Shown here piece by piece: positions 20,501 to 23,500 of a stretch of 64,000 bases of DNA; within the stretch, counting starts at the first letter, position 1, and the number at the start of each line of letters is the position of its first letter. This DNA is from Escherichia coli. Its GTDB lineage: Bacteria; Pseudomonadota; Gammaproteobacteria; Enterobacterales; Enterobacteriaceae. The position numbers are program-made. The stretch lies in assembly GCF_965641715.1 (NCBI RefSeq), contig NZ_OZ282453.1, one strand, 5' to 3'.

Positions 20501-23500
20501 ATGTGCAATTGATGAAGACAATAAAGATGCCACTGTTTATCAGTCAGGTCTGTATAACGTCATTGTTTATCATCACACAGGAAAAGTCGCCTTAATGAAA
20601 GAAGGCCAGTTTGTGGGTTATTTAAAATGAAGGAACAAAGGAAAATACCCCTGACGCATATTATGATTATCGGTGCGTTTATTTTTGCCTTCTTGCAAGT
20701 AGTATTATTAGCCTCCCTGGTTCACGCTGTGAATGTTAACAATGAAATCCAGGAAGGCTTATTTCAGTCGGGGCGCATTATGGTAGAAAGTTTGCAGCAT
20801 ATTCTTTCGGTGCAAACGGGAATTAACTGATTTTCACCCCGCCCGATGATGACAGCAGCCGGAGAGATTTTCGATAATCGGGCAGTCGGCGCTGTCATCA
20901 CCGGGGCAGGCATTCGCCAGCGCCAGTAGCTGGTTGCGCATAGATTGCAGTTCTTCGATATGCCGTTCGATCTCCGCCACCTTCTCCAGCGTACGACGTT
21001 TGACGTCGGCACTGTGACGCTGCGGGTCGTTAAACAGATTCACCAGCTCGCCGCTCTCTTCCAGGTTAAAGCCCACCTGGCGCGCCTGGCGCAATAAGGT
21101 CAATTCGTTGAGATGCTGCTGCGTGTAGGTTCGATAACCATTTTCGCTGCGCATCGGCGGCGTCACCAGCCCCTTCTCTTCATAGAAGCGAATGGCTTTG
21201 CTGGTCAGGCCGGTAATTTTTGCTACATCGCTAATGTTCATCGTTCGCGCAACGCCTCCTGTGCTTTGTTAAAGGGTTTCAACAGATAATCCAGCACGCT
21301 TTTTTTGCCGGTGCGGATATCGACCGTCGCCACCATACCGGGGAATATCGGAAACTGCTGTTTGCTTTTGTTTTCCAGATGGTTGCTGAAAGTGCGAATG
21401 TACACCCGATAGTAATAAACATCGCGCCGCACTTCATCCTGAACGGTATCCGGTGAAATCACCGCCACTTCCCCCGGCAGACCACCGTAGATGGAGTAAT
21501 CGTAGGCGGTTATTTTCACCAGCGATTTTTGCCCCGGATGGATAAACGCCACATCGCGCGGGGAGATTTTTGCCTCAATCAGCAGTTGCTCATCCAGCGG
21601 CACGATGGTCATCAGTTTACCACCGGGGGCAATGACGCCGCCAACTGTGGTGACGTCAATATCCTGAACAATGCCACGAACTGGCGCAGTAAAGTTGAGC
21701 CTGGTGAGGGAGTCTTCACGCCCACGGATCACCGAACGCTGGGTTTCCACTTCCGCATTGGCTTTCGCTAACTCTTCCCGCGCCTGAACGTAGTATTGCG
21801 TGCGCACGTCGCTGAGTTTGTTTTCCAGTTCATTGGCCTGGCGTTGCAGGCGCAGTACTTCGACGCTGCTCGCTGCCCCCTGTTTTACCAGCGGCTGGGT
21901 CATCGCCAGTTCGCGATTGACCAGACTGATCCCCTGCGTCAGCCCGGTGGTGGCTTTGTTCAACCCGTCGCGGCGAGTGTTGTACAACGCCGTTTCCGAC
22001 TCGATAAGTTCGGGGAATTTATTCAGTTCGTCAGGGAAGACCAGCGGTTTATTGCTCACTTCCGCCCGCAGCCGCGCCGAGGTTGCCAGCGCCGCGTACA
22101 GCCGCGACATCGCTTCCTGGACGTCGGATTCCGTTTTGGTGCGGTTAAGCTGCGCCAGCGGCTGGCCCTGTTCGACAATATCGCCAACTTTCACGTCGAG
22201 ATGATACAGAATTCCGCCTTCCAGCGACTGCACCACCTGTTCGCGCCCGGAGGGTTCTACCGTGCCGCTGCCGGTGGTGACTTCATCAAGCTGGAAGTAC
22301 CACGCCCAGCCGAGAAAGCAGAGCAGCATCACAGAGGTAACACGTACCGCCAGCGCCGAACGCGGCAGGCGGGGTTCAGTCAGGCCACGGTTATATTGCA
22401 GTTGTCCGTTCATGCGGCAGACCCCTTATTCTTCTCCTGCAACACCACCCGTCGCGCCGTGGGTTCGCCCTGTTCACGCAAAATGGCCTCTTTCGCGCCG
22501 TCCATCACAATCCGCCCCTGATCCATCACGATAATGCGGTCCACCAGTTGCAGCATCGCCGTGCGGTGGGTAGCGACGATCAGCGTGCGATGCCCAATCC
22601 ACTGTTTCAGTTGTTCGATTAAATGCGCTTCTGCCATTTCGTCCAGCGAGGCGCTGGGTTCGTCGAGCAGCACGATATTGGGTTGAGAGATAAGTAGCCG
22701 CGCCAGCAGCAGCGTTTGCCGCTGGCCACCAGAGAGGCCAAATCCTCCTTCCTGAATCATGTAGTTGAGACCGTTTTTCTGCTTCTGCACAAAGGGCAGC
22801 GCTCCGCTGAGGGTTAACGCGCGTTCGATATCTTCATCGCTGGCTTCCGGCATCCCCATGGTGAGGTTTTCCCGCAGCGAACCAAAGAACAGTCGCCCGG
22901 TCTGGCTGAGTAGCCCCATGTCTCGCCGCAGATCTGCCGGATCAAGCTGCCCGATACTGATGTTATCCAGCAACACCTGCCCCTGCTGGGCGATACGCAT
23001 TCCGGCGAGCATTTGCAGTAGCGTCGATTTACCCGCGCCGTTGCGCCCGAGAATGGCGATTTTCTCTCCGGCCTGAATGTGGAGTTTGCCGATCGCCACA
23101 TCGGCAATCTTCTCTTCTTCGTCGTAATAAAAGATAGCGTTGCTGAACTGATAATTACCGTGCAGCACCGCTTTATGCACCAGTTTGCCGTGTTCCGGCT
23201 GATCCACGGGGCGCTTCATCAGTTCATCAAGGCCGTTACGTGCTACTTTCGCCTGCTGCCAGCGCGAGAGCACGCCGGATATCTGCGACAGCGGCGCGAT
23301 GGTGCGCGAAGCCAGGATCGTCGTCCCGACCAGTGCGCCGGTGGTCATGTCGCCGTTCATCACCATAAAGCAGCCCACCAACAGCACCACGACGTAGACG
23401 ATGGATTGCACTTCCTGGGTCCAGGTGAGCAGTAGCCCGGTGAGAAAACGTTGCTTCATGCTGATGGACGAGGCCACGTCGTTGGTGTGATTCCACTGAT

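Follow-up and report, generated by a model that had tools for sequence, protein, structure and literature searches.

Promoters within the coding sequence of an upstream gene and 4-nt ATGA overlaps are known among co-directional bacterial genes. Here, we analyze such an arrangement in a 64,000-nt stretch of an Escherichia coli chromosome (RefSeq assembly GCF_965641715.1, contig NZ_OZ282453.1; hereafter, the window), where cueR, the gene for a copper-responsive regulator, overlaps hlyD28, the gene for the type I secretion adaptor of O-island 28 (OI-28). The most likely interpretation is that cueR forms a largely independent transcription unit with its start inside hlyD28, and that the overlap is an old insertion scar, not a regulatory link between copper and adhesin. 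As in the known co-directional cases, the cueR leader would start in the preceding open reading frame (ORF), and the geometry resembles that of the hlyB28/hlyD28 and qmcA/ybbJ pairs in the same window. In contrast to the usual ATGA overlaps, hlyD28 and cueR are functionally unrelated, and their junction would reflect insertion, not operon compaction.

In Salmonella, Citrobacter, Enterobacter and Klebsiella, copA and cueR form a divergon (PMC1526738), with which the window shares a CueR of 83–91% identity, a copA promoter with a CueR box, and the downstream genes ybbJ-qmcA. In Escherichia, by contrast, an insertion of 2.5 to 28 kb meets cueR precisely at its ATG; the ancestral upstream region is lost, and the promoters lie within the inserted DNA. 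The island in the window is the known OI-28 of enterohemorrhagic E. coli O157:H7 EDL933 (tolC28-rtxA28/rtxB28-hlyB28-hlyD28, Z0608–Z0635), which is activated by RstA and Ca2+ and required for adherence (PMC12758282). The two islands agree in the ybaT-cueR site, the gene order and the RstA box, and the EDL933 hlyD28 product carries the same PGAP accession (WP_001014327.1) as that of strain A30, whose protein is a 100% match to the one encoded in the window. They differ in the 20-kb adhesin gene, which in EDL933 is a PGAP pseudogene with an internal stop (split Z0609/Z0615), whereas the adhesin gene of the window is intact. The published account of OI-28 mentions neither cueR nor the overlap, and treats the island as acquired, not as ancestral and then lost (PMC12758282). 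OI-28, CueR and, in a published supplementary table, the transcription start site (TSS) discussed below are already known. The overlap, the gene identities, the hlyD28 relics of K-12 and E. albertii, the breakpoints and the identity to EDL933 come from the present analysis, and the TSSs and expression values from published EDL933 and K-12 data.

The cueR start codon and the hlyD28 stop codon share ATGA at positions 21238–21241 of the minus strand, in agreement with the earlier note on this DNA; both the ORF list and the profile matches bear this out. The minus-strand junction reads ...GCA CAG GAG GCG TTG CGC GAA CGA TGA ACA TTA GCG GAT..., so that the adaptor ends in A-L-R-E-R-stop and cueR begins with ATG-AAC-ATT. 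The two genes are:

20834–21241, minus strand: cueR, Cu(I)-responsive MerR-family regulator, 135 amino acids (NF007590).
21238–22413, minus strand: hlyD28, HlyD-family type I secretion adaptor of OI-28, 391 amino acids, Z0635 in EDL933 (TIGR01843).

CueR scored 308 bits against NF007590 (cut-off 244; residues 1–135 of 135) and 206.6 bits against TIGR02044 (cut-off 147.4). Its neighborhood agrees with this assignment, with ybbJ-qmcA downstream and copA upstream both in the window and in 80 enterobacterial loci; copper-responsive activation of copA and cueO by this CueR is predicted. The hlyD28 product scored 327 bits against TIGR01843 (cut-off 208.7), reached profile position 422 of 422, and aligned with the solved E. 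coli HlyD (8dck_C) through the last residue (...LRER versus ...LHER). This match to the very end indicates that the stop position is native to the HlyD family, and both the cueR start and the adaptor stop are genuine. The identical 4-nt overlap is present in the PGAP annotations of A30 and EDL933. The ATGA overlap per se is ordinary geometry, found elsewhere in the window at hlyB28/hlyD28, at qmcA/ybbJ and in a gene pair at 14576; the unusual part is that the paired genes have unrelated functions.

The lack of intergenic space had led to the proposal that any cueR promoter must lie inside the adaptor coding sequence, and published data from EDL933 place one there. Table S5 of the EDL933 Cappable-seq study lists cueR (EDL933_RS02800) with one TSS, at a distance of 160 nt and within the 250 nt searched, and EDL933 and the window are 100% identical from −200 to −1 relative to the cueR ATG. 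The same start would presumably be used in the window strain. For comparison, the table gives a RegulonDB start-codon-to-TSS distance of 19 for K-12 cueR. The corresponding elements of the window are:

21401, minus strand: predicted cueR TSS, transferred from EDL933; an A located 160 nt upstream of the ATG, inside hlyD28.
21409–21414, minus strand: −10-like hexamer TACTAT, ending 7 nt before the TSS and spanning the Tyr-Tyr codons of hlyD28.
21432–21437, minus strand: −35-like hexamer ATGAAG, with a 17-nt spacer to TACTAT; combined position weight matrix (PWM) score 7.3.
21255–21260, minus strand: Shine-Dalgarno-like AGGAGG, 13 nt before the cueR ATG, in the hlyD28 codons Q-E-A.

The ATGAAG/TACTAT pair was picked up independently by our own PWM scan. 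The segment containing the −160 promoter was found in exactly the 959 island-bearing genomes, and AGGAGG is conserved across all Escherichia examined, E. albertii included. A scan for consensus sigma-70 sites over 20700–22500 found none on the cueR strand upstream of cueR, and a graded PWM scan across hlyB28 and hlyD28 peaked at 9.9, compared with a maximum of 10.0 ± 1.4 for shuffled sequence; a promoter is thus not locatable here from sequence alone. The best sigma-70 match of the region (ATGACA / 18 nt / GATAAT, 10 of 12 positions) is antisense, within the 3′ end of cueR at 20849–20878 on the plus strand; it is kept in K-12 and is predicted to be able to drive an antisense transcript across cueR.

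Published RNA sequencing of EDL933 under 11 conditions bears on a further claim of the earlier note, that cueR might be co-transcribed with the island and couple copper homeostasis to adhesin expression. In its full form, this alternative makes cueR a fifth OI-28 gene, whose transcripts would come mainly from read-through of the tolC28 promoter, activated by RstA and Ca2+, and whose translation would depend on termination-reinitiation at the ATGA, with CueR following adhesin expression; we regard it as unlikely. The arrangement itself is in its favor: there is no intergenic space, ATGA is the classic geometry of translational coupling (compare hlyB28/hlyD28), and no convincing minus-strand terminator was found between hlyB28 and cueR. 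A weak 5-bp terminator candidate inside hlyD28 (22227–22214) was not considered functional.

The expression values do not support this alternative as the main route. Across the conditions, reads per kilobase per million (RPKM) ranged over 1–462 for tolC28, 0–5 for hlyB28, 0–8 for hlyD28 and 0–29 for cueR, and the sums over all conditions give ratios of 6.1 for cueR/hlyB28 and 91 for tolC28/hlyB28. Thus, cueR lies about 6-fold above hlyB28. It does not track tolC28 (rho 0.46, p 0.16): tolC28 at 418 was paired with cueR at 2, and tolC28 at 58 with cueR at 27. Where tolC28 reached 105–462, the signal fell to 0–5 over hlyB28 and then climbed again at cueR. An operon member was expected to lack a promoter of its own; instead, EDL933 has the primary TSS 160 nt upstream of cueR, in sequence identical to that of the window. 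Furthermore, CueR is required where the 26-kb adhesin operon is barely expressed, and an E. coli strain with a decayed island (SCPM-O-B-8794; hlyB fragments, hlyD frameshifted) retains an intact cueR.

Several observations nevertheless weigh against an independent cueR unit starting at −160. The PWM score of 7.3 is below the chance maximum for the region (10.0 ± 1.4), so support for this promoter comes from the mapped TSS and not from sequence; in the same PWM, the experimentally mapped promoter inside K-12 ybaT scores just 5.7. The stretch from −202 to −130 is invariant between E. coli and E. whittamii (P(0 substitutions) = 0.012), but this 73-nt run is the third-longest in hlyD28, behind two other invariant runs, and its conservation was therefore downgraded from proof of a promoter to weak support. 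At 13 nt, the distance from AGGAGG to the ATG is rather large for cueR translation to be initiated efficiently on its own. The RPKM values of cueR and hlyD28 in EDL933 correlate (rho 0.78), which is compatible with co-transcription and is also expected if the 160-nt cueR leader is counted as hlyD28. An rstA mutant lowers hlyD28 mRNA 3–5-fold in EDL933 (PMC12758282); some operon transcripts therefore reach the adaptor gene and hence cueR. Finally, the internal stop in the EDL933 adhesin gene could cause polarity, and with the intact adhesin of the window, which removes this possible source, read-through into cueR may be larger.

Taken together, we favor cueR as mainly its own unit. In island-bearing strains, cueR would be transcribed mainly from its own weak sigma-70-type promoter in the 3′ part of hlyD28, with the TSS at 21401 and a 160-nt leader, and would be translated from its own AGGAGG. 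Because no terminator intervenes, island transcripts that reach hlyD28 would run on into cueR, and ribosomes that have finished hlyD28 could start again at the overlapping AUG. The contribution of OI-28 read-through is probably minor, presumably also where the adhesin gene is intact.

To locate the native cueR promoter, a comparison with the K-12 ybaT-cueR intergenic sequence had been suggested. It turned out to mislead: K-12 cueR starts lie at −39 and −86, the −160 promoter is deleted, and the apparent intergenic sequence is a 98-nt relic of the adaptor gene. The two segments of the window that correspond to it are:

21242–21339, minus strand: 3′ segment of hlyD28 surviving as the K-12 relic (~98 nt), upstream of cueR in K-12, CFT073 and 4458 of 5426 genomes.
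21280–21317, minus strand: homolog of the K-12 −39 promoter region, TCCGCA / 18 nt / TGcTGGATT, with the TSS-equivalent G at 21280; PWM score 1.5.

In K-12 BW25113 and CFT073, which have no island, cueR is directly preceded by 98 nt from the 3′ end of hlyD28, frameshifted and with the same ATGA; PGAP calls this remnant a pseudogene. The final 60 nt before the cueR ATG are identical in all four sequences aligned (window, A30, BW25113 and CFT073). The K-12-type deletion measures 25.8 kb and ends on its right side 98 nt short of the hlyD28 stop; the −160 promoter is therefore absent from K-12. We also considered whether the relic could be ancestral DNA captured as the 3′ end of the adaptor gene. 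This was ruled out, as its 32 codons align to HlyD C-termini and to TIGR01843.

The reported K-12 cueR starts conflict with one another. Cappable-seq gives plus-strand starts at 513,102, 513,131, 513,178 and 513,196, corresponding to −115, −86, −39 and −21 from the cueR ATG, with scores of 3.7, 49.2, 100.3 and 2.0, respectively. A start at −292, inside ybaT, was obtained by TSS-seq (Kim et al. 2012; PMC3415461), and RegulonDB gives −19. We report all of them and choose none; no cueR start is present in Mendoza-Vargas 2009, SMRT-Cappable-seq or Conway 2014 (supplement aside).

These data raise the question of whether island-bearing strains simply use the K-12 cueR promoter in the last ~100 nt of hlyD28 (TSS at −39), which would explain why that piece was retained. 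The strongest K-12 Cappable-seq start (−39) and another one (−86) do lie within the relic, the last 60 nt before the ATG are the same with and without the island, and the TSS base and a GATTAT/TGGATT −10-like element exist in the window. The details of both K-12 promoters make this explanation quite improbable. The −86 start follows closely after a TATTAT that the deletion junction created and that is absent from the window. The −39 start is preceded in K-12 by TTCGCA / 17 nt / TGcTTGAAT, scoring 8.8 against 1.5 for the intact gene in the same register; the relic differs from the intact gene by a 1-nt deletion, which leaves a 17-nt instead of an 18-nt spacer, and by three substitutions in the hexamers (C>T, G>T, T>A), all toward consensus. 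In addition, within the 250 nt searched, the EDL933 table contains the −160 start alone and no TSS at the equivalent of −39.

The origin of the junction was traced in 80 fetched cueR loci, one genome per species, 75 of them outside Escherichia (including Salmonella, Citrobacter, Enterobacter, Klebsiella, Kluyvera and Kosakonia). In all 75, the sequence upstream of cueR lacks glsA, ybaT and OI-28 genes. When the fetched flank includes copA, this gene is divergent and usually ~108 bp from cueR, and in the non-Escherichia genera inspected, the −35 element and CueR box of the copA promoter are 9–10 nt from the cueR ATG. In Escherichia, this promoter stays beside copA:

49580–49609, plus strand: copA promoter with CueR box.

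The Escherichia sequence upstream of the cueR ATG matches the ancestral one at 7–12 of 30 nt and has no remaining similarity to it. Given this unrelated upstream sequence and the ancestral copA-cueR layout elsewhere, a block with OI-28 (with or followed by glsA-ybaT) appears to have entered the gap between the copA promoter and cueR in an Escherichia ancestor, no more than ~10 nt from the cueR ATG. The insertion would have separated cueR from everything upstream of its ATG, and the ATGA overlap would be the resulting junction, having arisen at the insertion event itself. The joint is common to the end of hlyD28 (CGATGA) and the start of cueR (ATGAA), which makes joining by microhomology plausible.

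The intact adaptor-cueR arrangement is present in E. whittamii, in Escherichia sp. E1V33 and in 959 of 5426 complete E. coli genomes (18%), and the K-12-type deletion junction in 4458 of the 5426 (82%) and in a cryptic-clade Escherichia; those E. coli genomes, K-12 among them, lost OI-28 through a single shared deletion. E. albertii has a different, more decayed hlyD28 relic of ~55 nt (local alignment score 56 against a shuffle maximum of 27), with 21 of the final 22 nt identical. Since island-less genomes carry frameshifted relics and E. whittamii has the intact junction, the genome comparison indicates that OI-28 is ancestral to this Escherichia group and was lost at least twice, K-12 being the derived state. 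The earlier suggestion that the island insertion rewired cueR expression thus holds only for the origin of the genus; relative to K-12 the polarity is reversed. In SCPM-O-B-8794 (positions 1–4001 of that locus), OI-28 is decaying: tolC28 is a fragment, the adhesin is gone, hlyB28 is in three fragments and hlyD28 has a +2-nt frameshift near its 3′ end, with cueR and its 60 upstream nt intact. The island has thus been lost in a third way, independently of the other two. In Escherichia sp. MOD1-EC7003, glsA is apparently internally deleted (positions 2351–2578 of that locus; residues 1–46 and 266–310 match), with ybaT and the K-12-type relic intact.

The opposite history, in which this lineage gained OI-28 next to the cueR start only recently and the overlap arose by accident, draws on the distinct composition of the island (genes of 52–60% GC, upstream intergenic region of 33%), on its presence in only 959 of the complete genomes, and on the published description of an acquisition (PMC12758282). 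It is highly improbable and, on the genome comparison, already contradicted: 98 nt of true C-terminal adaptor coding sequence, frameshifted and with the same ATGA, are found in E. coli without the island, and an insertion cannot leave an hlyD28 relic in such genomes. Moreover, the same junction recurs in the 4458 genomes and the cryptic clade, E. albertii has an independent relic, and E. whittamii is intact.

The left side of the K-12-type deletion falls into a terminator-like structure following ybaT. The relevant features of the window are:

47117–47149, minus strand: intrinsic-terminator-like hairpin after ybaT, with a 9-bp stem and a 5-nt loop followed by CTTTGTCTTT; free energy −16.6 kcal/mol, z −5.2.
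47328–47378, minus strand: homolog of the ybaT-internal promoter region (Kim et al. 2012), 1 mismatch.

The hairpin stem begins 12 nt past the ybaT stop and is followed by a T-rich tail. As the left breakpoint is inside the hairpin, K-12 keeps the 5′ arm alone, with the 3′ arm and T-tract deleted, and its ybaT-cueR interval contains no terminator-like site. Because of this loss, read-through from ybaT into cueR is plausible only in the deletion genotype. A K-12 ybaS-ybaT-ybbI(cueR) operon was predicted in a 2006 study (PMC1526738), and K-12 cueR rises together with ybaST under acid. In the window, the ybaT promoter of Kim et al. differs in its setting, lying ~26 kb upstream of cueR and ahead of the intact terminator-like hairpin. 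A one-mismatch copy (CTGGCGCTGGTTTTGCT, 47708–47724, minus strand) of the sense-strand intragenic sigma-54 motif of K-12 ybaT (PMC4591121) is also present; in K-12 the motif is 679 bp upstream of cueR, and in the window it would face the ybaT terminator and OI-28.

We tentatively propose that cueR may have been re-promotered at least twice in Escherichia: the OI-28 insertion would have placed it under the hlyD28-internal promoter, and the deletion removed that promoter, a loss possibly compensated in three ways, namely by the junction TATTAT (−86), by the four consensus-ward changes in the relic (−39), and by the half-lost ybaT terminator opening acid-induced ybaST read-through. The data suggest such promoter turnover after the deletion.

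The gene order of the window is copA (plus strand), then glsA, ybaT (minus strand), tolC28, the giant adhesin gene, hlyB28, hlyD28 and cueR. As the earlier note described, cueR stands at the 3′ end of a four-gene adhesin/secretion string; all four OI-28 genes are on the minus strand and each is above its NCBIfam cut-off. Besides hlyD28, the locus comprises:

49650–52154, plus strand: copA.
47161–48453, minus strand: ybaT.
47104–47117, minus strand: RstA box TAATTCAAATTACC of the OI-28 regulatory region, published in PMC12758282 and located in the window.
45468–46823, minus strand: tolC28, TolC-family type I secretion outer-membrane protein (TIGR01844, 416 bits, cut-off 225).
24576–45365, minus strand: giant SiiEA/BapA-related Ca2+-repeat adhesin, intact ORF of 6929 amino acids.
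22410–24572, minus strand: hlyB28, LssB-type type I secretion ABC permease/ATPase (TIGR03375, 836.9 bits, cut-off 693.1).

The adhesin scored 501.5 bits against NF047714 (cut-off 425) and has Ca_tandemer repeats in its N-terminal 900 residues; no NCBIfam family matched its C-terminal 1199 residues at E<=1e-10, and the secretion signal could therefore not be placed. The parts of an LssB/HlyD/TolC-type type I secretion system are complete (ABC exporter, full-length adaptor, TolC-family protein and giant adhesin), and secretion and adhesion activity, reported for EDL933 (PMC12758282), is predicted for the island of the window. The RstA box overlaps the end of the ybaT terminator T-tract by one base (47117), and the end of ybaT transcription is therefore contiguous with the RstA-bound regulatory region of OI-28.

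The downstream flank of cueR is variable as well. In the window, the segment between ybbJ and cueR (17538–20833) contains three ORFs:

18368–20107, plus strand: ORF of 579 amino acids, weak coiled-coil-type matches only.
20208–20630, plus strand: ORF of 140 amino acids.
17640–18002, minus strand: ORF of 120 amino acids.

In this segment, A30 and EDL933 encode a YadA-family autotransporter adhesin of 338 residues together with a lipoprotein, and CFT073 encodes one 407-residue hypothetical protein; in K-12, nothing separates the stop codons of cueR and ybbJ, which lie directly against each other.

In the literature searched, we found no description of a link between OI-28 and cueR, of the K-12 "intergenic region" as an adaptor relic, or of the −160 promoter or ybaT terminator loss, and a search on cueR, glsA, ybaT and read-through found no paper. 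The overlap gives no indication of a new regulatory mechanism; rather, it appears to mark a case in which the control region of a core metal regulator was replaced by horizontally acquired DNA, and again after the deletion of that DNA. K-12 cueR promoter data (−19, −39, −86 and −292) are consequently not transferable to the 18% of E. coli with OI-28, O157:H7 included. Knockouts of hlyD28 or OI-28, published ones included, can take away the promoter of cueR, its ribosome-binding site or the context of its start codon; they could thereby change copper homeostasis and confound adherence or colonization phenotypes. OI-28 itself is better described as ancestral in Escherichia and repeatedly lost than as a pathogen acquisition. 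If the proposed promoter turnover is correct, island-bearing and island-less E. coli would set the CueR level through different inputs, and the reported acid induction of cueR and copper/acid cross-protection would be a property of the deletion genotype.

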